From contig JBEKBG010000002.1 of NCBI GenBank assembly GCA_050015515.1, positions 18,777 through 82,776 on the forward strand: a stretch of DNA of 64,000 nucleotides, given 5' to 3'. The position numbers and the translations under genes were made by a program. This document shows positions 2,754-58,271 of the stretch, piece by piece; the first letter of the stretch is position 1, and every line of letters begins with the position of its first letter. The notes under the pieces were generated by a model. The model was not told where the DNA came from. It ran no database searches and worked only from the letters and a program-made list of their open reading frames with translations. Source of the stretch: Minisyncoccia bacterium. GTDB lineage: Bacteria > Patescibacteriota > Minisyncoccia > UBA6257 > 2-01-FULL-56-20.

Positions 2754-3170
2754 ATGCCTACCATCCGTCAACTCATCAAAAAGCCCCGAAAGCCGCTCGC
2801 GTCAAAGATAAAAGCGCCGGCGTTGTCGTACTATTTTAATTCCATCCATAACCGTCCGGTGGATTCCGCGTCGCCCTTCAAGCGGGGTGTGTGCGTGAAG
2901 GTTTTCACCCAGACGCCGAAGAAACCGAACTCCGCTATCCGCAAGGTGGCGCGCGTGCGATTGACGAACGGCATGGAAGTCACGGCGTACATTCCGGGCA
3001 TCGGCCACTCACTGCAGGAACACTCCATCGTCATGCTTCGCGGCGGCCGCGTAAAAGATCTTCCGGGCGTCCGCTATCACATCGTTCGTGGCGTGCTCGA
3101 TACGACCGGCGTTGAAAATCGCAAGCAACAGCGTTCAAAATATGGCGCCAAGCGCCCGAAGAAAAAATAA
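2754..3170 (+). CDS. rpsL: 30S ribosomal protein S12
   Basis: [13 protein letters not shown]...[37 protein letters not shown]...VRYHIVRG; about 15-aa insertion after KAPAL. Confidence 0.95.
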
Positions 3171-3194: not shown

Positions 3195-3662
3195 ATGCGC
3201 AAAAAGCGAATATATAAAAAGTTCCATCAGCCTGACGTCGTGTACGGCCGCGTTGAGCTTGGCCGCTTCATCAACTATGTGATGAAAGACGGAAAGAAAT
3301 CCACCGCCGAGAAGCTGGTCTATTCCGCATTCGATAAAATAAAGGAGGCGACGAAAGAGGAGCCGATGGTGGTCTTCGAACGCGCTCTCGAGAATACAAT
3401 GCCATTGCTGGAGGTCGCGTCCAAGCGCGTTGGCGGCGCGAACTATCAGGTGCCGCGCGAGGTTCGCCCCGAGCGCCGCTTCGTGCTCGCGCTTCGCTGG
3501 ATCATCGGCGCCGCCCGCGCCAAGAAGGGCAAAGGCATGGCCGACAAGTTGGCGGAAGAGATCATTGCCGCGTCCAAGAACGAAGGCAACGCGATCAAGA
3601 AGAAGCTCGACATGCACCGCATGGCGGAAGCCAACCGCGCGTTTGCGCACTTCGCGAGATAA
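3195..3662 (+). CDS. rpsG: 30S ribosomal protein S7
   Basis: 155-aa ORF with typical S7 sequence (…[15 protein letters not shown]…LALRWII…). Confidence 0.95.
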
Positions 3663-3748
3663 TCATTTGTAATCGCAAAAAGAGAAAAATGGCCCGGCGT
3701 CGGGCTGTTTTTTTAAGATAGTTTTAATCGGCATTTTGTTACGGTGGG

Positions 3749-4174
3749 TTGATGTATGATCCGGCGTTTCAATTTGAGCGTGAAAAAATAGAAAATGAAG
3801 CGCGAGAAACTTATAACAAAATCGGGCATGTTTGGTCGCCCGTATTGAATGGCCATATTTCATTTAAGAGTGCCGGTTTTCGCCATTTGATGTGGAAAGG
3901 AGGAAAACGTCGGCCGTATACACAGCAAATAAAACGACTCTCATTGATCGCATATGCAGCTAAAATAGTTTCCGATCCGAAAGCGCGGGTCATTGAGCGA
4001 GAAGAAATGCGTGATTCACTGATCAAGCGTGCCGGGGTGAAAATCATAATTAAGGCCCCGGTTCGTTTTTGGGCCTTTCATGCAAATATAGAAAGAAAAA
4101 ACATACGAGTAATTGTGAGGCAGGTCAGTAATGGGAGTAAGCACTTTTTCAGCATTTTTGAGGAAGAGAAATAA
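3749..4174 (+). CDS. hypothetical protein, paralog of 10553..10963 (conserved HLMxKxGKRR … FW … IVLRQ … KHFFSI)
   Basis: 141-aa basic protein; clear alignment to the ORF at 10553-10963; inserted between rpsG and fusA. Confidence 0.6.
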   Translation: MMYDPAFQFEREKIENEARETYNKIGHVWSPVLNGHISFKSAGFRHLMWKGGKRRPYTQQIKRLSLIAYAAKIVSDPKARVIEREEMRDSLIKRAGVKIIIKAPVRFWAFHANIERKNIRVIVRQVSNGSKHFFSIFEEEK

Positions 4175-4256
4175 AAAAGGACTCGATAGCGAGTTCTTCT
4201 TTATATGCCTGTGGCAACTATACCGCCTCGCCAAGGAGCTTCAGCTCCTGCAGGCA
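4173..4256 (-). ncRNA. candidate convergent small RNA abutting the 3' end of 3749..4174
   Basis: Minus-strand promoter (-35 TTGACT at 4291-4286, -10 GATAAT around 4266-4261), about 80-nt structured transcript, terminator hairpin ACTCG-CUAU-CGAGU plus U-run whose T-run overlaps the TAA of the plus gene. Confidence 0.35.
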
Positions 4257-4320
4257 CATCATTATCATACACTTAGACGATAATCAGTCAAATAACTTTT
4301 AATGATTTTTTAATGTTTTG

Positions 4321-4360
4321 AAAAAATAATAAAAATGCCGCCCGTGGTGCCGGGCGGCAT
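4321..4360 (-). terminator. rho-independent terminator of gene 4393..4707
   Basis: ATGCCGCCCG-TGGTG-CCGGGCGGCAT hairpin with A-run on plus strand (T-run on minus). Confidence 0.6.
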
Positions 4361-4392
4361 TGGGTGCTGTTGTAATGAAGCCGCGACGAATG

Positions 4393-4707
4393 CTAATTCG
4401 ACGCCGCTGCCACTATCTGGCGGACAAGTGAACCTTCGGCGCTCGTCAGTAGATGGACGAGCGGATTTTCGGGATCCTTGAGGTCGTTCTCTGTCCACTC
4501 GGTCGTGTCGACGACCACCTTCCGCATGGCGTCGTCCGCGAATTCCGGGTCGTCGAATATCGCCGGGGTCGAGATGAGGATCCTGTATCGACCGACTTCG
4601 CCGCGGGTAATGAATCCGCAATATTTGCCTGCGTTGTCGGGGCCCGCATGGGTCGCAATGATGTCATCGGGGTTTCCCGCTATCTCGTACGCTGTGAGTC
4701 TTGTCAT
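4393..4707 (-). CDS. hypothetical protein
   Basis: Start MTRLTAYEIAGNPDD with GGAGG 8 nt upstream (one of few SD-bearing genes); 104 aa. Confidence 0.5.
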   Translation of the reverse strand: MTRLTAYEIAGNPDDIIATHAGPDNAGKYCGFITRGEVGRYRILISTPAIFDDPEFADDAMRKVVVDTTEWTENDLKDPENPLVHLLTSAEGSLVRQIVAAASN

Positions 4708-4817: not shown

Positions 4818-6935
4818 ATGCCCCGACAATATTCCATCGAGAAGACCCGCAACATCGGCATCATCGCGCACATCGATGCGGGTAAGACGACCGTCAGTGA
4901 ACGCGTGCTTTTTTATACCGGCGTTTCGCACAAGATCGGCGAGGTGCACACGGGCGACACGGTGATGGATTGGATGGAGCAGGAACGCGAGCGCGGCATC
5001 ACGATCACGAGCGCCGCGACGACCGCGTTCTGGACGCCCACGTATCACGCCGCGGGTCCCGACCATAAAAACTTCGAGCACCGCATCAACCTGATCGACA
5101 CTCCGGGCCACATTGACTTTACCGTGGAGGTAAAGCGCTCGCTGCGCGTTTTGGACGGCGCGGTCGTCGTATTCGACGGCGTCGCCGGCGTGGAGCCGCA
5201 GTCGGAGACCAACTGGCGCTACGCGGACGATTACAAAGTGCCGCGCATCTGCTTTATCAACAAGCTCGACCGCGCCGGCGCGGACTTTGAAAAGAGCTTC
5301 AAGTCCATCCTTGACCGCCTCACCCAGAACGCGATCCCGATCCAGCTGCCGATCGGCACCGAGGCGAACTTTAGCGCGGTCGTGAACCTGCTCGAGAACA
5401 AGGCGTATACCTTCGAAGGGGAGCACGGCGAGAATATCGTAGAGATCCCGATCCCGGCAGATATGATGGAGACGGTGGCAAAGCATCGCCATGATCTCAT
5501 CGAAAAGATCGCGGAGAACGACGACATCGTGATGGCGAATTACTTGGACGGAAAAGAGATCTCACTCGAGGACCTTCGCAAGACGTTACGCAAAGGCGTC
5601 ATCGCAAACACGATCGTGCCGGTCATGTGTGGTTCGGCGCTCAAGAACAAAGGCGTGCAGTTTATGTTGGATGCCGTCATCGAATACCTGCCGTCGCCGG
5701 CGGACATGCCGCCGATCATGGCGCATGACGAAAAGACGGGCGAAATTGTGCCGGTCAAGCTTACCGACGAAGAGCACTTTGCGGGTTTGGCCTTCAAGAT
5801 CGCAACGGATCCGTTCGTAGGAAACCTGGCGTTCTTCCGCGTCTATGCCGGCGTCCTTAAGAAAGGCTCGTATGTGTATAACTCCACGAAGGGTCAGCAG
5901 GAGCGCGTCAGCCGTATCGTCCGCATGCACGCGAACGACCGCGAAGAAGTGGACGAGGTCTACTCCGGCGAGATCGCCGCAATCGTGGGCTTAAAGGGCA
6001 CCACCACCGGCGACACATTGTGCGATCCGGATCACGCCGTCATTTTGGAAAAGATCACGTTCCCGGAGCCGGTCATCGGGTTGCGCATCGAACCGAAGAC
6101 AAAAGCGGACCAGGAGAAGATGGGCATTGCATTGCATCGCTTGGCGGAAGAAGATCCGACGTTCCGTGTGGAAGGCGATAACGAGACGGGGGAGACGATC
6201 ATCTCCGGCATGGGCGAATTGCACTTGGACATCATCGTGGACCGCATGAAGCGCGAGTTCAACGTCGGCGCAAACGTGGGTCGGCCGCAGGTGGCATACC
6301 GCGAAACGATCACGGCGGAAGCCGAGGGCGAAGGCAAGTACATCAAGCAATCCGGTGGACGCGGTCAGTACGGTCACGTTAAGTTGCGCGTAAAGCCGGG
6401 AGAAAAAGGCTCGGGATTCGTGTTCGTTGACGCAATCAAAGGCGGTTCCATTCCGAAAGAATTCATCAACCCAACAGAGAAAGGCGTCAAAGAAGCGATC
6501 GATAAAGGTATTGTCGCCGGCTATCACATGGTAGACGTGGAGGTAGAGCTCTACGATGGTTCGTTCCACGAGGTGGACTCTTCCGAAGCGTCATTCAAGA
6601 TCGCGGGTTCCATGGCATTCCAGGACGCAGCCAAGAAAGCCAAGCCGGTCATTCTCGAACCGATCATGAAGATCCAGGTCATCGTGCCGGACAACTTCAT
6701 GGGCGAGGTCACGGGCAACGTCAGCGGCAAGCGCGGCGCCATCGAATCGATCGACGATCGTCCGGGTCAGCTCAAGGTGGTGAATGCCAAAGTGCCGTTG
6801 TCCGAATTGTTTGGTTACGCTACCGAGCTTCGCTCGATGTCACAGGGGCGTGGTTCATTTACGATGGAATTTGATCACTACGAGGCGGCACCGCGCAATG
6901 TGACGGAGCAGATTATTGAGGGGAAGAAGCGCTAA
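4818..6935 (+). CDS. fusA: elongation factor G
   Basis: [17 protein letters not shown], full EF-G domain order; 705 aa; about 12-aa insertion after switch region. Confidence 0.97.
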
Positions 6936-7059
6936 AACAATATAGGGCACATGCTTTTGAAAGGACGGCGTTCCAGCCTGCTGGCTGGCCGCCTTGGCTC
7001 TCGCCGCCTTCGCGGCTCCGAGACACCTTTCAAAAGCATGTGCCCTATGTTGTTTTAGC
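6931..7059. repeat. long palindromic element, family 1 (34-bp arms plus conserved about 60-nt core)
   Basis: Arms GCTAAAACAATATAGGGCACATGCTTTTGAAAGG / reverse complement (1 G-T mismatch); 5' arm contains the fusA stop codon; core ACGGCGTTCCAGCCTGCTGGCTGGCCGCCTTGGCTCTCGCCGCCTTCGCGGCTCCGAGAC. Confidence 0.8.
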
Positions 7060-7151
7060 GACCCGTTTCAGAGTGATCTGCGGCACGGTGTTCTTGGGCC
7101 GGAGATGAAGGTAGTCTAGCGAATTAATAAGTGCTAACATGTTAAATATAG

Positions 7152-7883
7152 ATGAAAAAAACACCCTCAAAAATCAAGGTTATTGATCTATTTTGTGGTA
7201 TAGGAGGCTGGATCGGGGGGACGCGACCGGACAACGCTCGCTTCGTTCCGCCACCGGTGGATGACATGAAGCGTTCTCTTTCGGATCTCGAGAGTTTTAT
7301 GTATGCGGAAGATGCGACGCTGACCGTCATTAAGGCGGGTCTTTTGCATGCGCAATTTGAGACCATCCATCCGTTCCTTGATGGTAATGGAAGAACGGGA
7401 CGGATGCTCATCACATTCTATTTGTGGAAAGAAGGGTTTTTGGAAAAGCCTGTTTTGTTTTTATCCTCATATTTTAAAGAACATCAAAAGGTCTATTACG
7501 AAAAGCTTTTGTGCTATCACGAGGGAAAGGTTTCTGAGTGGATTGAATTCTTTTTGGATGGGGTTATTGAGATCGCCAATGAAGCAATCGATATTGTTGG
7601 GAAAATAACGAAGCTTAGAGAAGGGGATACGGAAAAGGTTCAAGGCCTTGGCAAGCGCGCATCGGAAAGTGCAATGAAGGTATTGCCCAAGCTTTATGGC
7701 CAACCGATCGTCAACGTGAGTCTTGTTCAGCGGTGGACCGGTTTTACCCGTGCCGGAGCACAAACCGTCATTGATCGGTTTATCGAGCTTGGCATTCTCT
7801 CCAAGAAGGATAAGGACAAGAAATATGGGCAGTCTTATATTTATAAGAAATACGTGGGCTTATTTTCTGATAGCGCCGCGTAG
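7152..7883 (+). CDS. Fic/DOC family protein (HPFxDGNGR motif) with C-terminal wHTH-like region
   Basis: AQFETIHPFLDGNGRTGRMLITFYL matches the Fic active-site motif HxFx(D/E)GNGRxxR; short N-terminal region suggests possible 5' truncation. Confidence 0.65.
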   Translation: MKKTPSKIKVIDLFCGIGGWIGGTRPDNARFVPPPVDDMKRSLSDLESFMYAEDATLTVIKAGLLHAQFETIHPFLDGNGRTGRMLITFYLWKEGFLEKPVLFLSSYFKEHQKVYYEKLLCYHEGKVSEWIEFFLDGVIEIANEAIDIVGKITKLREGDTEKVQGLGKRASESAMKVLPKLYGQPIVNVSLVQRWTGFTRAGAQTVIDRFIELGILSKKDKDKKYGQSYIYKKYVGLFSDSAA

Positions 7884-7933
7884 TTTGCGTTGGAGCGCAG
7901 CGAGGACTCCTGTGCGGGCGAGGGCGCTTCGCG

Positions 7934-7998
7934 ACCGTGCCGAAATCCAACCCTTCACGGGGAAGATGCTTCTTTATCTCAACTGCCGCGATTGCGGC
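7934..7998 (+). promoter_or_regulatory. partial duplicate of SAM-I riboswitch 3' half plus terminator hairpin
   Basis: GACCGTGCCGAAATCCAACCCTTCACGGGGAAGATGCTTCTTTATCTCAACTGCCGCGATTGCGGCATTTTT is about 90 percent identical to 9318-9372 in the complete riboswitch. Confidence 0.45.
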
Positions 7999-8090
7999 AT
8001 TTTTAGTTCCTTTCTTTGGGGGTATCGTTGTCACTATCCCTGCGGCGATCGTGGGGATCATTTTAAGATTAAAACCTCATTAAAAGAGTT

Positions 8091-8119
8091 TTGACTTTGG
8101 TACTGGGTGGGCGGACAAT
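8091..8119 (+). promoter_or_regulatory. promoter TTGACT-N17-GACAAT, -10 ends 7 nt before ATG 8126 (leaderless)
   Basis: TTGACT 8091-8096; the same AAGTTTTGACTTTGG promoter module recurs at 10441 and 17742. Confidence 0.45.
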
Positions 8120-8125
8120 GATGAT

Positions 8126-8980
8126 ATGGAAAAGAAAAAAAGAGAACAGAATACTCATCCGACGATCTTTGAAGAGAAAGAGGTTCGAAGAACCTGGCAT
8201 GATGAAAAGTGGTATTTCGTTATAGCAGACGTGGTGCAGATTCTTACCGATTCGAAAGATGTTCAGGGGTATATTAAGGATATGAGACGGCGAGATCCGG
8301 AGCTATCCCAAGGGTGGGGGCAAATTGCCACCCCCCTTGGGATTGAGACCGCTGGAGGAAAGCAAAAAATGAATTGTGCTAACTTGGAAGGCATCTTTCG
8401 TATTATTCAATCCATTCCTTCCCCAAAGGCGGAGCCATTTAAGCGCTGGCTCGCCAAGGTCGGCAAGGAAAGGATCGAGGAAATCGCAGACCCCGAATTG
8501 GCGGTAACGCGGACTAAAGAGATTTACGACAAAAAAGGATATCCAAAAGATTGGGTTGATAAGCGCATGCGAGGCATTGCCGTCCGAAATACGCTTACCG
8601 ACGAGTGGAAATCGCGGGGAGCGTCGATGAGCTTTGAGTTTGCGATTTTAACCGACGAGATTTACAAGGCGGCATTTGATAAGACCGCGAAAGAATATAT
8701 GAAGCACAAAGGGTTGGATAAAAAAGCGGGTGATAATTTGCGCGACCATATGGGAGACATTGAATTGATTTTGACGATGCTTGGAGAAGCGACGACGACC
8801 AAGCTCAGCACGGAAAAAGATTCGCATGGATTGGAAGCGTTAAAGAATGATGCGCAAATTGGGGGAGGCGTCGCCGGCAGGACTCGAAAAGATATCGAAC
8901 GGCAAACGGGCAAAAAGGTAATTTCAAATGAGAATTTTAAAAGCCGGAAGCTTTTGAAAGGCAAGGAAATTCGCAAGTAA
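8126..8980 (+). CDS. Bro-N domain protein / phage antirepressor-like
   Basis: FEEKEVRRTWHDEKWYFVIADVVQILTDSKD fits the Bro-N (KilA-N-like) pattern F..E.R....DGE.WF.A.DV..LG; 284 aa. Confidence 0.55.
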   Translation: MEKKKREQNTHPTIFEEKEVRRTWHDEKWYFVIADVVQILTDSKDVQGYIKDMRRRDPELSQGWGQIATPLGIETAGGKQKMNCANLEGIFRIIQSIPSPKAEPFKRWLAKVGKERIEEIADPELAVTRTKEIYDKKGYPKDWVDKRMRGIAVRNTLTDEWKSRGASMSFEFAILTDEIYKAAFDKTAKEYMKHKGLDKKAGDNLRDHMGDIELILTMLGEATTTKLSTEKDSHGLEALKNDAQIGGGVAGRTRKDIERQTGKKVISNENFKSRKLLKGKEIRK

Positions 8981-8981
8981 T

Positions 8982-9251
8982 ATGTCCCAGAAAACCAGGA
9001 TCAAAAAGAATTTAGCGCTGTCGGCAGATTTCAACGCGTATATTTTGAGAAATCCGAAAGTGATGGATAAATTACCCAGGAAGGTCTGTATCGTTTTTGA
9101 AGACAAAAAGGACCAAATTTTTTCGCGGGCAAACTTGAACACGGCAAAAGATATTGCGAATAGCGAGAAATGTTTCGTTGCGAGTAAGTCTGGGTCTCGC
9201 TGGTCTTTGCGTCCGCTCGCCGTATGCTATAATCATCTTACAACCGAATAG
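8982..9251 (+). CDS. hypothetical small protein
   Basis: 89-aa ORF immediately after the Bro-N gene; no recognisable motif. Confidence 0.25.
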   Translation: MSQKTRIKKNLALSADFNAYILRNPKVMDKLPRKVCIVFEDKKDQIFSRANLNTAKDIANSEKCFVASKSGSRWSLRPLAVCYNHLTTE

Positions 9252-9397
9252 CCCATCAAGAGAGTGGAGATGCTAAGGGATCTGGCCCGATGCTCCGCCC
9301 GCAACCGATCGACGATTCGACACGGTGCGAAATCCAACCCTTCACGGGGAAGATGCTTCTTTTAGATCAACTGCCGTGTAGGCGGTTGTTTTTTTGC
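9252..9397 (+). promoter_or_regulatory. SAM-I (S-box) riboswitch with intrinsic terminator, upstream of metK
   Basis: CCATCAAGAGAGTGGAG..GGGATCTGGCCCGATG..CCGCCCGCAACC..GGTGCGAAATCC..GGGGAAGATGC matches S-box conserved blocks (ATCAAGAGAGG, GGGAYTGGCCCGATGA, GCAACC, GGTGC.AATTCC, GAAGATG); terminator CAACTGCC-GTGTA-GGCGGTTG plus T7. Confidence 0.8.
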
Positions 9398-9455: not shown

Positions 9456-10409
9456 ATGATAAAAACTGCGGAGTTTGTTTCGCCTCGGCATCCGGATAAA
9501 TTGTGCGACCTCATTGCGGATTCACTGCTCGATGCGTATCTGGCGGGGGATCCAAAGAGCCGCGTGGCGGCGGAGGTGATGGGTGGCCATGGGCACGTCA
9601 CGATCTCGGGGGAAGTGACGAGCGCGGCGTCGGTGGATATTCCAATTGTCGTGCGTTCCGTGCTGGGCTATGATGCGGCGGTGCATGCGTATCTTGTGCG
9701 GCAGAGTCCGGAGATCGCGCAGGGCGTGGATACGGGCGGCGCGGGAGATCAGGGCATTATGATCGGCTATGCCACGCGGGAGACGCCGTCGTTCCTACCG
9801 TTGGAATATGTGTTGGCGCGGGAGCTGTGCCGGAAGTTGTATGCCGTGTATCCGTATGACGGGAAGACGCAGGTAACGGTGGATGGTGATCGCGTGACAT
9901 GCGTCGTCGCAAGCTTTCAGAACGCTCCATCTGCCGCGCTTGAGGCGCTTGTGCGCGCATCCATAGTGGCGGACGAGTATCTGGTGAATCCCGCGGGCGA
10001 ATGGTCGCTCGGCGGCTTCGATGCGGATTCGGGGATCTCCGGGCGCAAGATCGTGATCGATAATTACGGGCCGGAGATCGGCGTGGGCGGCGGATCGTTC
10101 TCGGGCAAGGATCTCACCAAAGTGGATCGGTCGGGCGCATACATCGCGCGGCGCATCGCGGTGGATTACCTGGCGCGATTTTCGTCCGCGCGGGCGGTGC
10201 GTGTAAAGCTCGCGTACGCCATTGGCAAGCCACAGCCCGTCATGGCCGTGGCGGAATTAAGCGAGGGTTCCGGCGGTGTTCGCGTTGTGCCCGTTTCTGA
10301 TTACGACCTTACTCCTTCCGGCATCGCCACGCTTTTGAAGTTCTCTTCCGTGCGCTGGGCCGACACCGCCGCGTGGGGACACTTTGGGAGGGAGTTCAGC
10401 TGGGGATAG
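9456..10409 (+). CDS. metK: S-adenosylmethionine synthetase (short form, 317 aa)
   Basis: HPDK near N-terminus, GAGDQG, GGGSFSGKD..KVDRSGAY, GHFGR motifs. Confidence 0.85.
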   Translation: MIKTAEFVSPRHPDKLCDLIADSLLDAYLAGDPKSRVAAEVMGGHGHVTISGEVTSAASVDIPIVVRSVLGYDAAVHAYLVRQSPEIAQGVDTGGAGDQGIMIGYATRETPSFLPLEYVLARELCRKLYAVYPYDGKTQVTVDGDRVTCVVASFQNAPSAALEALVRASIVADEYLVNPAGEWSLGGFDADSGISGRKIVIDNYGPEIGVGGGSFSGKDLTKVDRSGAYIARRIAVDYLARFSSARAVRVKLAYAIGKPQPVMAVAELSEGSGGVRVVPVSDYDLTPSGIATLLKFSSVRWADTAAWGHFGREFSWG

Positions 10410-10450
10410 TGCCAGCTACTGTCGGAGATTAAAAAAATATTAAAAAAGTT

Positions 10451-10479
10451 TTGACTTTGGCGTTGAATTGCTTAGAATA
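10451..10479 (+). promoter_or_regulatory. consensus promoter TTGACT-N17-TAGAAT for sRNA 10486..10570
   Basis: TTGACT 10451-10456, TAGAAT 10474-10479. Confidence 0.55.
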
Positions 10480-10485
10480 GAAACA

Positions 10486-10570
10486 TGCTCGTAGGGCGTC
10501 GGCAGCTCCTGCCCAATCGGCTCACGCTGGTAGCGAGCATATCAAATAACCGTCACATGGCGGTTTTTTG
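10486..10570 (+). ncRNA. candidate convergent small RNA overlapping the 3' end of 10553..10963
   Basis: About 85-nt transcript with nested stems (ATGCTCG…CGAGCAT), terminator hairpin AACCG-TCACATGG-CGGTT plus TTTTTT (10565-10570); overlaps the last 18 nt of the minus-strand gene. Confidence 0.35.
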
Positions 10571-11028: not shown

Positions 11029-11496
11029 ATGCACCTCTCCTATATCCTTATCCCGCTTGTTACGATCCTCGTCGCTTTTGTCGGCGGCCGGCTGACGGTG
11101 GCGTCGGTCAAGACGTGGTACGTTGGGTTGCGCAAGCCGTCGTGGACGCCGCCGGGCGCCGTGATCGGTACGGTGTGGACGGTGCTTTATATCCTCGCCG
11201 CGCTATCGGCGCTTATCGTTTGGAATCTTCCTGATGGCGCTTCGGTGCCGGCGATGATTGCCGTGCTCTTTTATTTGAACGCGGCGGTGAATGTTTTCTG
11301 GAGCTATGTGTTCTTTTACCTCCACAAGATGGGGCCGGCGATTTGGGTGTGCCTGTTCCTGGATATCACGATCATCCTGTTGATTCAGTTCATCGCGCCG
11401 ATTTCGCCGCTCGCCGCATGGCTTTTGGTTCCGTACGCGGCCTGGGTGACCTTTGCCTCGTATCTTAACTATCGGGTGTGGGAGATGAATCGGTAG
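11029..11496 (+). CDS. tspO: TspO/MBR family tryptophan-rich sensory protein
   Basis: WYVGLRKPSWTPPGAVIGTVWTVLYIL…LVPYAAWVTFASYLN; five TM helices; 155 aa. Confidence 0.8.
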   Translation: MHLSYILIPLVTILVAFVGGRLTVASVKTWYVGLRKPSWTPPGAVIGTVWTVLYILAALSALIVWNLPDGASVPAMIAVLFYLNAAVNVFWSYVFFYLHKMGPAIWVCLFLDITIILLIQFIAPISPLAAWLLVPYAAWVTFASYLNYRVWEMNR

Positions 11497-12505: not shown

Positions 12506-13705
12506 ATGGCAGAAAAAGAAAAGTTCGATCGGTCCAAGCCGCACCTTAACGTAGGTACGATTGGTCACGTCGATCATGGCAAGACCACGTTGACCGCGGC
12601 CATCACTCACGTGTTGTTCATGAAGGGCTGGACAAAAAAAGAAGAGAACGTAAATCAGATCGACAACGCTCCAGAAGAGAAGGCGCGTGGTATCACTATC
12701 GCGTTGCATCACTCGGAATATAATTCGGAGAAGCGCCACTACGCGCACGTGGATGCTCCGGGACACGCAGACTATATTAAGAACATGATCACCGGTGCCG
12801 CCCAGATGGACGGCGCGGTGCTCGTCGTCGCCGCGACCGACGGCCCGATGCCGCAGACGCGCGAGCACATCTTGCTCGCTCACCAGGTCGGTGTGCCGAA
12901 CATCATCGTGTTCCTCAATAAAGTTGATATGGTGGATGATCCGGAATTGATCGATCTCGTGGAATCCGAAGTTCGTGAGCTTCTCACGAAAAATGGATTT
13001 GACGGCGAACATGCGCCGGTCATCCGCGGTTCCGCATTGAAGGCATTGAACGCAACCTCGGCCGATTCTCCGGATGCCAAGCCGATCCTCGATCTCGTGA
13101 AGGCGATGGATGATTACTTCCCAGATCCGGTTCGCGAACTCGACAAGCCGTTTCTTATGCCGATCGAAGACATATTCTCGATTGAAGGCCGTGGCACGGT
13201 CGTCACGGGACGCATTGAGCGCGGCAAGGTGAAGGTGAACGAGGAAGTTGAGGTCGTTGGCCTTAAGCCGACCCAGAAGACCGTCGTCACCGGAATCGAA
13301 ATGTTCAACAAGAGTTTGGACGAAGGCCAGGCAGGCGATAACGCCGGTTTGCTCCTCCGCGGCCTCAAGAAAGAGGACGTGGAGCGCGGACAGGTTTTGG
13401 CCAAGCCGGGCAGCGTGACCCCGCACGCGGAGTTCGAAGGCGAGATCTATGTGCTTTCGAAAGAAGAGGGCGGCCGCCACTCTCCGTTCTTTAAGGGCTA
13501 CAAGCCGCAGTTCTACATCCGCACGACCGACGTGACGGGCGAGGTTACCCTTCCGGAAGGAATGGAAATGGTCATGCCGGGTGATACCGTCAAGATTACC
13601 GTCAAGCTTATCACCCCGGTCGCTTTGGAAGACAAGATGCGTTTCGCCATCCGCGAGGGAGGCAAGACCGTTGGCGCCGGCGTCGTGACCAAAATAATTA
13701 AGTAA
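12506..13705 (+). CDS. tuf: elongation factor Tu
   Basis: [27 protein letters not shown]; 399 aa; AT-rich upstream with no SD. Confidence 0.97.
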
Positions 13706-13816: not shown

Positions 13817-13911
13817 GTTTTTAAATTTTGTCACGACGCCGCGCGTCTCCGGTTCTCTTCGGGAGGTGTTTTTGTTCGAGTGTTGAGGAGATACTCGGGC
13901 CTGAGCGACAT

Positions 13912-14316
13912 ATGTGGTATTATAGATTCATGCAAATAATTGGAATTATTGCAGTCGTCCTTCTTGTTGGGATCTTCATTGTATTTATAAAGCAAAGTAC
14001 TAATAACTATTCCAAAATTTCTTTGGTTGGTGCCTTGATCGTATCTTTGGGGTTGATAGCTTCCGGATCTGGTGCATCAAACGTCATTCCGACAAGTTTG
14101 GCATTCGTATTTTTTGCGATCTTAATCATTTCCTTATTGGCTATGGTTATATTCGCCGTCGTGGGTGCAATAACGGATCCAAGAATTTCAAAGGAGGGGA
14201 CGTTGCCTATTATTTGGAATAAGATCATTCCCATAGGAATAGCAGCGGCCCTCTTACTTGTTATAGGACTCTTTCTTTATTTGATATTTATCGTTGGAAC
14301 GGCATTCAGGGGATAG
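13912..14316 (+). CDS. hypothetical multi-TM membrane protein
   Basis: MWYYRFMQIIGIIAVVLLVGIFIVFI… four hydrophobic segments; start chosen at internal ATG 13912. Confidence 0.4.
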   Translation: MWYYRFMQIIGIIAVVLLVGIFIVFIKQSTNNYSKISLVGALIVSLGLIASGSGASNVIPTSLAFVFFAILIISLLAMVIFAVVGAITDPRISKEGTLPIIWNKIIPIGIAAALLLVIGLFLYLIFIVGTAFRG

Positions 14317-14379: not shown

Positions 14380-14721
14380 GCGGATCCAAACATAATGCTG
14401 CGTGGTCCGAGGTGACACCATAACCATGATAACAATCCCAAAATATTCGTCAAAACATTTTTAATCTTTATTTAATGTTTTTATTACCGTTGCGCGGGGG
14501 TGCGAGGACTTGCGCCTCGTGGATCCATAGCGTCACCTCGGACCCAGCACTATGCCACCCCCGCTGCAGTCTATAAAATAGTGCATTAAAACTGTCTAAA
14601 GTCATCTGCGGCTTCACTTTTCGTCACGATGTCGTGTACCTCTATAGAATGCTTTTAAGGTTGATTTTAAAATGGGTTCAAGATAGCTTATAGGTAGTTC
14701 TACGAAACGAAAAGGAGTTAT

Positions 14722-15981: not shown

Positions 15982-16102
15982 TGATGAACACGGCCCCGCG
16001 CGGAGAACTAACATTCCGCGCGGGGTTTTTCTTTTATGGATATCCCAATAAACCACGGGTTTGACACTTTCATGAAGTTTGCTATACTTTCTTGGTACTC
16101 AA

Positions 16103-16426
16103 ATGGCCAAAACAGACGTTCCCCAAAAACTGCGCTTGCGCATAAAGTCCTACGATCACAAACTGATCGACAATTCGGCACGCCAGATCATCGAGGCCGC
16201 CGAGCGGAACGATGCGAAAGTGACGGGGCCGATCCCGCTTCCCACGGAAGTAAAGCATTACACCGTCAACCGTTCGACCTTTGTCCACAAGGACGCTCGC
16301 GAGCAGTTCGAGCTCCGCATTCATAAGCGCCTCGTCGAAATATTGAATCCCAACCAGAAAATCATCGAATCACTTTCGAACCTGAATCTTCCTGCGGGCG
16401 TGGATATAGAAATAAAGATGGTTTAA
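16103..16426 (+). CDS. rpsJ: 30S ribosomal protein S10
   Basis: [23 protein letters not shown]…VTGPIPLPT; separated from rplC by a 3.9-kb insertion. Confidence 0.9.
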
Positions 16427-16507: not shown

Positions 16508-16693
16508 CGTGGACACCATAAGAAGAAGATTCAGAGAGCTTTACTGTCCATAAATGTTCGATCCCCGCGTCTCTTATGAAACACGGGGATCAGGGGAAAA
16601 TCCCGAATTGTTCCTTAATTGTATCGCGCCACCAGGATAAATCAAAAAGTTTTTAATAATTTTTTAATCTTTGAAAATGGTATAGTGAAGAAA

Positions 16694-56587: not shown

Positions 56588-58140
<1,553 letters not shown>

Positions 58141-58271
58141 TAATCTATAAAATTCGTTTTTATAGAGTCGAACTTTCTTCTCTTTGGCCAGCGAATCGAT
58201 CGCAGGCGAAAGCGAGGGAGGTAATTGGGACAACTAAAAAGCTCTTTGTATAAATATGGTAGAATATATCT

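Follow-up and report, generated by a model that had tools for sequence, protein, structure and literature searches.

Between rpsG and fusA, the 64,000-nucleotide (nt) stretch of a Minisyncoccia (Patescibacteria) genome analyzed here, hereafter called the window, carries a two-gene module: a gene for a basic protein and, convergent with it on the opposite strand, a gene for a small structured RNA. The whole analysis is computational. A first-pass annotation made from the letters of the window had described the protein gene as an insertion between rpsG and fusA. This stood: the pair is an insertion in the str operon. An additional gene, unrelated to the module and encoded on the minus strand (open reading frame [ORF] 104, hereafter ORF104), lies within the same insertion. 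The G+C content of the module is 39 to 45%, versus 55 to 63% in the flanking ribosomal genes.

Alignment with homologues makes the ATG at 3752 a more likely start codon than the TTG at 3749, and the TAA stop codon occupies 4172-4174. The encoded protein of 140 amino acids (aa) is annotated by NCBI as a "hypothetical protein" of a Minisyncoccia metagenome-assembled genome (MAG). It has a pI of 10.3 and a grand average of hydropathy (GRAVY) of -0.52, and its most hydrophobic 19-residue stretch reaches only 0.86, so that no transmembrane segment is predicted. The protein is thus large and basic rather than a small hydrophobic peptide, as had been recognized from the start.

The near-consensus minus-strand promoter proposed in the first-pass annotation is present, with TTGACT, a 16-nt spacer, and TATGAT running from 4291 down to 4264 and matching the consensus at 10 of 12 positions. 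We found 5 promoter-like sites in the region, against 3.1 ± 1.8 expected, and a single match is therefore within chance. What takes the promoter beyond chance is its conservation among relatives: of 23 related modules, 22 have TTGACn, a spacer of 16 to 18 nt without sequence conservation, TAnnAT, and then 5 to 8 nt to the first stem. From the position of the -10 element, transcription would start at ∼4257, and the U-tract places the 3' end at ∼4172, so the predicted transcript of about 80 nt is corrected to ∼86 nt, its structured nature and its strand being upheld. The tail of this RNA, CCUUUUUUAU in minus-strand reading, is the complement of the TAA stop codon and of the A-run that follows it, again as previously noted. 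The features of the module, of a second copy in the window, and of the flanking DNA are listed in Table 1.

Table 1. Positions of the module, of its second copy, and of neighboring features in the window
Feature	Position	Strand	Remarks
Protein gene, LPD3-like	3752-4174	+	140 aa from ATG 3752 (141 aa from TTG 3749)
Small RNA transcript, ∼86 nt	4172-4257	-	Y-shaped core, A-rich linker, terminator hairpin, U-tract
Y-RNA core	4198-4260	-	Covariance model R1
Bidirectional intrinsic-terminator hairpin	4177-4198	both	Terminator scan; common to mRNA and small RNA
Sigma-70-type promoter of the small RNA, TTGACT-16 nt-TATGAT	4264-4291	-	Promoter scan and conservation
UP-element-like AT-rich box, ATTAAAAAATCATTAAA (minus-strand reading)	4298-4314	-	6 nt upstream of the -35 element
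AT-rich promoter-type box, TTTAAGATAGTTTTAAT	3712-3728	+	Conserved, upstream of the protein gene
5' leader, cggcattttgttacggtgggttg, 23 nt	3729-3751	+	Conserved
Second copy, paralogous protein gene, 136 aa	10553-10963	-	Family hidden Markov model, 128 bits
Second copy, RNA unit	10428-10552	+	UP box 10428-10444, TTGACT-16-TAGAAT from 10451, Y-RNA core 10482-10547, terminator
rpsL	2754-3170		Upstream flank
rpsG	3195-3662		Upstream flank
Terminator hairpin 3' of rpsG	3692-3705		
Strong minus-strand terminator	4334-4361	-	Beyond the small RNA promoter, serves the ORF104 side
ORF104, unrelated acidic gene	4393-4707	-	
fusA	4818-6935		Downstream flank

Fold of the RNA and its linkage to the protein family

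A 94-nt minus-strand stretch that covers the RNA folds with a free energy of -36.2 kcal/mol (z = -3.8), and none of 200 shuffled sequences folded as well. The fold is Y-shaped, and we refer to the molecule as Y-RNA. It consists of a closing stem, P1 (4257-4251 with 4211-4205), and two hairpins, P2 (4249-4244 with 4239-4234) and P3 (4233-4228 with 4217-4212), followed by an A-rich linker and the terminator; the A-rich single strand between P1 and the terminator is conserved. In an alignment of 15 RNAs, 97.3% of the cells of the three helices are paired and 8 of the 15 base pairs have changed on both sides. The covariance model built from this alignment, R1, finds the window RNA with a score of 63.8 bits (E = 1.7e-19). 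With 21 sequences, 96.8% of the cells are paired, 9 of 15 pairs show compensatory changes, and the observed score is reached by none of 500 shuffles. As a control, pairing partners were slid by 1 to 3 columns, and pairing then amounted to only 33 to 53%.

The strand of the structure is fixed by 25 G·U cells, which would turn into A-C mismatches on the strand of the gene; the G·U wobble in P3 is conserved in 18 of the 21 sequences. We rejected a plus-strand structure in the 3' untranslated region of the protein gene, since only 87.1% of the cells would pair there, against 97.3% on the minus strand, and the predicted fold is less stable for each of the 15 RNAs. A peptide encoded in the RNA was likewise discarded: the ORFs that begin at a conserved AUG vary between 2 and 37 codons with no conserved frame, and several RNAs lack an AUG altogether, so we consider the RNA to be non-coding. 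Neither RNA copy of the window matched a family of Rfam 15 at its gathering score, the best sub-threshold match being Atu_C8 (21 bits against 50, E = 0.61), and the region holds no tRNA or transfer-messenger RNA. The RNA contains no hypervariable single-stranded segment of the guide type, and tandem repeats are absent from the module except for the 11-nt UP box. Complementarity of the RNA to the 5' leader and start region of the gene was not in excess, duplex energies falling in the shuffled range at six of seven loci. Our literature search found no paper on such an RNA or on the function of PF18798, the Pfam family to which the protein is related (see below).

We gathered further loci from homologues of the protein in collections that are metagenomic and consist mostly of short contigs. 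The first-pass annotation had raised the question of whether the convergent RNA is kept beside the protein family. It is: a promoter-driven, structured, convergent RNA was found in 24 of 24 distinct assessable modules, whose proteins are 31 to 72% identical to the window protein, and 110 to 310 nt of non-coding DNA follow the gene at every locus with enough downstream sequence. R1 gives 41 to 80 bits beside the LPD3-like genes of the loci from which it was built, and it also detects the RNA beside five independently chosen later members of the family (L028, L029, L031, L033, and L034), with 18 to 59 bits. Six RNA copies that had not contributed to the model reach 24 to 59 bits. In three distant members (L012, L013, and L026), the RNAs cannot be aligned with the others, but the promoter is kept and the same Y plus terminator fold is predicted (z = -4.0 to -5.5).

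The window itself contains a second copy of the module. A hidden Markov model search found exactly two genes of the family within the 64 kb, and the product of the second is 34% identical to that of the first. This copy sits between metK (9456-10409) and a gene for a TspO-like membrane protein (11029-11496), and R1 matches its RNA with 43 bits (E = 4e-12). The housekeeping context differs from locus to locus: other modules lie by xseA, at xerC-rpsO, at uvrB-uvrA, after dnaE, near tuf, and near clpB. At L033 (100-3909), one module lies between a gene for a large serine recombinase and a gene for an rve-family transposase.

Incomplete forms of the module were also encountered. L001 (3834-3893) has an orphan Y-RNA with intact promoter and fold and no gene opposite. 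At L020 (3001-3360), the protein gene is truncated at its N-terminal end and the RNA and its promoter are intact. At L005 (3077-3810), conversely, the gene is intact, but insertion of a 92-aa ORF has removed the promoter and the 5' half of the RNA; 500 bp from the truncated RNA lies another with the same type of P3. In L022 and L023, a separate terminator serves the RNA, ∼200 nt past the stop codon of the gene, and thus no overlap between mRNA and RNA is needed. In relatives with a shifted stop codon, the reading frame runs into the terminator hairpin, which accounts for the EEDKQKRTHE tails of their proteins. Upstream of some modules, we observed runs of a short GC-rich hairpin repeat of the GTCATTCC...GGAATC type (L005, 2190-2330; L022, 2740-2950). 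A weak R1 match in L022 (15.5 bits) falls within such a run and was dismissed.

The relatives of the protein numbered 14 in a single-sequence search and 336 in a profile search, and 1,164 representative clusters were matched at E ≤ 1e-3. They are 120 to 160 aa long with a pI of 10 to 11, and every named relative comes from Patescibacteria. Searches of viral contigs, phage genomes, and plasmids gave no relatives, and we set aside a phage or plasmid origin on this basis; the one viral contig that was matched by a DNA pattern of the RNA proved to be a chance match inside a Gly/Ala-rich coding region. The only Pfam signal of the window protein is a weak match to LPD3 (PF18798), a domain of polyvalent proteins of phages and conjugative elements (17.1 bits against a cut-off of 27, E = 0.0066, model positions 7 to 114 of 114). 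Among family members, P0012 passes the cut-off with 29.2 bits and others reach 25.7 and 23.3, and several family clusters carry a precomputed PF18798 hit. The AlphaFold2 model (predicted local distance difference test score [pLDDT], 90.7) has four helices and four long antiparallel strands, and structures labeled LPD3 in BFVD match it with a probability of 0.98 and a TM-score of 0.50. We read the protein as a divergent, free-standing LPD3 subfamily.

Neither a Foldseek search of the predicted model against the PDB, which returned nothing significant, nor a sequence-profile search of the PDB identified a relative of known structure, and PADLOC and NCBIfam assigned the protein to no defense-system or toxin family. 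The protein also matched no family of IS200-type transposases or of any recombinase. Most invariant residues are basic or aromatic (R63, R84, F107, W108, R124, and the K131-H132-F-F-S135 run), and H46 is nearly invariant. LPD3, a domain with no assigned function, has been seen alongside predicted BECR RNase domains in the polyvalent proteins of Helicobacter prophages (PMC5512222). From the predicted fold, an assignment of the window protein as an RNase would be weak.

Alleles of the rpsG-fusA slot

In a close relative (L010), the rpsL, rpsG, and fusA regions are 83 to 98% identical to those of the window, and a module occupies the same slot. Its interior is only 32 to 62% identical to the window and its protein 48%, whereas conservation persists at both ends, in the leader and in the RNA promoter. 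This module, too, has a Y-RNA, with a different P3 arm.

Two further loci, L035 and L036, were found through homologues of ORF104. There, the rpsG-fusA slot holds a PemK/MazF-family ORF instead of the LPD3-like gene (L035, 3395-4010; L036, 1215-1900). At its start, the slot has the terminator and the AAGATAGTTTTAAT box known from the window and a similar leader; at its end stands the same UP/-35 promoter. Against Pfam PF02452, the L035 protein scores 22.6 bits, just below the cut-off of 23.1 (E = 1.3e-4, model positions 4 to 107 of 109). It is 37% identical (E = 1e-30) to a protein of L034 that scores 46.4 bits, above the cut-off, and its best sequence matches in the PDB are MazF chains, which are weak (E ∼0.2). 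Judged by these matches, the allele of L035 and L036 belongs to the PemK/MazF family. No protein antitoxin gene lies upstream of this PemK gene, which directly follows the rpsG terminator and the promoter box.

The cassette of L035 and L036 keeps a Y-RNA (R1 score of 28.7 bits; fold z = -3.5 to -5.4). P1 and P2 of the L035 RNA are almost identical to those of the L010 RNA, while P3 is entirely different. The hexaloop of this P3 reads UUACAU. UACAU is the cleavage motif of the MazF toxins of Bacillus and Staphylococcus, a resemblance that could be a coincidence. At L034 (4700-5300), we found a second PemK-family gene with the same TTTTAGATAGTTTTAAT leader box. The RNA convergent with it has a UP box and TTGACC-16-TATTAT, and it shares the GGCUUCGGCC hairpin with the L035 RNA.

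ORF104 adjoins both the LPD3-type and the PemK-type alleles of the rpsG-fusA slot. Since neither L010 nor any other module has this gene, it is a feature of the locus rather than of the module. A GGAGGAA box precedes the ATG of ORF104, and its product, an acidic hypothetical protein (pI 4.5), shows 100% identity to one encoded in a Minisyncoccia MAG (locus tag ABR884_01100).

Promoter boxes and other features of the window

Most loci of the family have a TTTAGAnnnnTTTTAAT box 22 to 24 nt before the start codon, and the same box stands upstream of the PemK alleles of L035 and L034. The leader consensus ..TATCGTGGyyGG-ATG also recurs across loci. From this position and conservation, the box at 3712-3728 of the window would act as the promoter of the protein gene.

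TTTAAT-N5-TTTAAT occurs 14 times in the window against 0.42 expected (for example, at 2419, 3712, 4298, 4795, 8068, 10428, 14460, 16652, 17723, and 40056). Its reverse complement lies 6 nt upstream of TTGAC at other promoters of the window, including those at 2419, 8068, 10428, and 17723, which serve unrelated genes. In that orientation, the box looks like a UP element. Since it stands at several unrelated promoters, this is an architecture of strong host promoters rather than a property of the module, and the small RNA, which has the same arrangement, would therefore be driven by a full host promoter of UP box, -35, and -10. The boxes were also considered as ends of an element, iterons, or target duplications, which we rejected given their presence throughout the genome at a fixed 6-nt offset from unrelated -35 boxes. 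In the TTTAAT orientation, the box sometimes lies 6 nt before a start codon, as for fusA at 4818 and the ORF that starts at 8061. A role as a substitute for the Shine-Dalgarno sequence was rejected, as the motif shows no preferred position upstream of start codons; at the long ORFs of the window, enrichment at a set spacing from the start was seen for neither GGAGG nor TTTAAT. The 3' end of the 16S rRNA (58125-58141; Rfam match, 56603-58141) reads GGAUCAAUUAAACU and has no CCUCC anti-Shine-Dalgarno.

Two further UP/-35/-10 promoters stand over short stretches free of ORFs, both on the minus strand. A terminator closes one stretch (∼14385-14453), which faces, in convergent orientation, an ORF for a membrane protein (13828-14316) downstream of tuf; the other (∼16520-16645) is convergent with rpsJ (16079-16426). 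Both may be additional small-RNA genes. A gene with a Fic domain (7152-7883) and one with a Bro-N domain (8126-8980) lie in a stretch of lower G+C content after fusA (6990-9300). They point to a further inserted island at the place where tuf would normally follow fusA; tuf is located at 12506-13705. Finally, tRNA-Ala(UGC) (1734-1807) overlaps the mechanically called start of a hydrolase-like ORF (1765-2400), so that the real start of this ORF is further downstream.

A candidate toxin and RNA antidote

The first-pass annotation had ventured that the pair may be a new kind of RNA-controlled module, and this agrees with the linkage of the two genes, with the cassette-like behavior, and with the PemK/MazF replacement. 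The module behaves like a selfish toxin-antitoxin or defense-type cassette. The best-supported reading is a toxin with an RNA antidote, since a PemK/MazF-family gene can be swapped in, P3 changes, and the module is multi-copy, sits in unrelated contexts, and is hypervariable and sometimes decayed. It is probably a cassette of an undescribed kind. The basic pI, the invariant Arg, Lys, and His residues, the co-occurrence of LPD3 with BECR domains, and the UUACAU loop of the PemK-associated RNA are suggestive in the same direction. Tentatively, and at slightly less than an even chance, we interpret the module as a two-gene cassette of a toxin and an RNA antidote in which the RNA recognizes the protein directly, as in type III systems. 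Direct recognition is favored over antisense pairing because the RNA is complementary to the mRNA only at the shared terminator, and in L022 and L023 not even there, because the 5' leader shows no excess of complementarity, because selection maintains the three-way junction, and because P3 tracks the protein partner. It is from the conserved fold and the partner-specific P3 that we infer binding and inhibition of the protein by the RNA.

In the mechanism that we propose, the LPD3-like protein would act on RNA, probably as a ribonuclease or a tight RNA binder, and would be harmful when unchecked. The abundant RNA would bind its cognate protein directly and hold it inactive, with P1 and P2 as a common scaffold and the P3 arm and loop as the partner-specific determinant, possibly a pseudo-substrate. 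If transcription of the RNA stopped, through loss of the locus, stress, or phage attack, the protein would be freed. The convergent layout would mainly keep the genes linked and the terminator shared, and it may add antisense effects or transcriptional interference. Recombination within the conserved promoter sequences at the two ends may carry combinations of a toxin with its P3 from one genome to another.

Several points weigh against a toxin with a directly binding RNA. One RNA scaffold serves two unrelated protein folds, for which a fold-independent mechanism such as antisense or transcriptional interference would be simpler. Known type III antitoxins are same-strand tandem repeats, unlike this RNA. 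No PADLOC model of anti-phage defense matched. The RNA beside the PemK gene of L034 has no match to the Y-model and a less convincing fold (z = -2.45). Lastly, the co-divergence of P3 and protein could reflect shared ancestry alone.

Compared with known systems, the module belongs to neither type I nor type III and is best described as a variant of RNA-antitoxin systems. With type III (ToxIN, CptIN, and TenpIN) it shares a presumably RNA-acting protein paired with a non-coding RNA, which by analogy would neutralize the protein by binding it or as a processed pseudo-substrate, and a terminator that would set the ratio of toxin to RNA. ToxN has a Kid/MazF-like fold, and in L035 and L036 a MazF/PemK-family protein occupies the cassette. 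In contrast to type III, there is a single Y-shaped unit instead of a tandem array of 34- to 45-nt repeats; the RNA lies downstream on the opposite strand under its own promoter, whereas the type III antitoxin lies upstream on the same strand; and the window protein is LPD3-like and not ToxN/AbiQ, CptN, or TenpN. The cassettes of L034, L035, and L036 resemble type II systems (MazEF/PemIK) in their PemK/MazF-family protein, but no MazE/PemI-type antitoxin gene lies upstream, and a convergent small RNA takes the place of the expected partner. The likeness to LPD3 lies in related sequence and fold; unlike the domain in polyvalent proteins, the protein described here is free-standing, chromosomal, found in Patescibacteria, and provided with a dedicated RNA partner.

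The alternative that fares best, although we consider it unlikely, is a non-toxic ribonucleoprotein in which the protein binds, chaperones, or modifies the Y-RNA and the pair serves the cell or a mobile element, for example, by regulating other transcripts. The strict linkage of RNA and protein, the basic nature of the protein, and the lack of a PADLOC match fit this idea, and a seed could be provided by the conserved, unpaired A-rich segment that links P1 to the terminator. Such a role leaves unexplained why a MazF/PemK protein replaces the LPD3-like protein in the same cassette, as well as the patchy, multi-copy, context-independent distribution, the hypervariable interior, and the decayed copies; moreover, the RNA lacks a hypervariable single-stranded guide segment.

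A type I-like mechanism appears somewhat less probable still. Here, the RNA would pair with the 3' terminator region of the mRNA and the duplex would be cleaved by RNase III, or transcription from the RNA promoter would interfere by collision or read-through. The first-pass annotation had likened the architecture of the locus to that of the Bacillus type I pairs txpA/RatA and bsrG/SR4. Indeed, the genes are convergent, their shared terminator is perfectly complementary, and the promoter of the RNA looks much stronger than that of the protein gene; a mechanism of this sort does not depend on the protein fold and would suit LPD3-like and PemK-like genes in the same arrangement. The analogy was not supported, however, as the complementarity amounts to the shared terminator of ∼35 nt, with no excess in the 5' leader. 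A terminator hairpin of this kind is common at any convergent gene pair, and overlap can even be absent, as in L022, where the RNA terminator, like that of L023, lies ∼200 nt beyond the stop codon. Furthermore, the orphan RNA has kept its promoter and fold without a gene opposite, simple cis-antisense pairing does not need a covarying three-helix fold, and a change of protein partner is accompanied by a change in P3 but not in P1 and P2. The known Bacillus type I toxins are hydrophobic peptides of less than 60 aa, with overlaps of ∼75 to 120 nt, unlike the basic, soluble protein of 140 aa without a transmembrane segment found here. A precedent within type I for a larger RNA-controlled toxin, tied to RNA cleavage and not a membrane peptide, is SymE/SymR (PMC1891008). 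There, SymR overlaps the 5' end of symE and its ribosome-binding site, for which the module has no counterpart, and the proteins are unrelated.

Very improbable is a mobile element whose RNA guides or templates its own movement, as in omega-RNA or bridge-RNA elements, with the protein as a recombination factor. Many unrelated insertion sites, conserved end sequences in the form of promoter boxes, and the copy beside recombinase and transposase genes could be cited in its favor. Nevertheless, the protein of 120 to 160 aa has no match among families of transposases, recombinases, or nucleases, and its gene and the RNA are bordered by ordinary promoter motifs of the host that occur genome-wide. 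No target-site duplications or terminal inverted repeats were seen, no variable RNA loops match the flanks, and viral contigs, phage genomes, and plasmids yielded no copies. Chance neighborhood of two ordinary genes, one for a small RNA and one for a hypothetical protein, for which only the single promoter match within chance expectation could speak, is effectively refuted by the pairing of the two in 24 of 24 modules from unrelated contexts and in both copies of the window.

A more specific version of the toxin and RNA-antidote reading is possible, and we hold it with less conviction. It is that the modules form an undescribed toxin-antitoxin class, in which a convergent three-way-junction RNA antidote combines a reusable P1/P2 scaffold with a P3 loop that serves as pseudo-substrate or inhibitor, and LPD3 or MazF/PemK proteins are interchangeable RNA-targeting toxins. 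In Patescibacteria, with their reduced genomes, cassettes of this kind would be common, and fixed chromosomal slots, such as the one between rpsG and fusA, would be the sites at which they are exchanged as alleles. In that case, the widespread orphan domain LPD3 would receive its first function.

The Y-RNA represents a new class of structured RNA, with strong covariation and absent from Rfam, that is tied one-to-one to a hypothetical protein family of >1,000 clusters, and it gives a first lead toward the function of LPD3, the domain known from phage polyvalent proteins. Natural swaps of P3 between close relatives provide a testable specificity code. If the module is indeed a toxin with an RNA antidote, it would add a new architecture to the RNA antitoxins, in which exchangeable toxins are paired with one folded RNA that is encoded on the opposite strand and has a promoter of its own, and ultra-small, host-dependent bacteria would keep several such cassettes inside their core operons.

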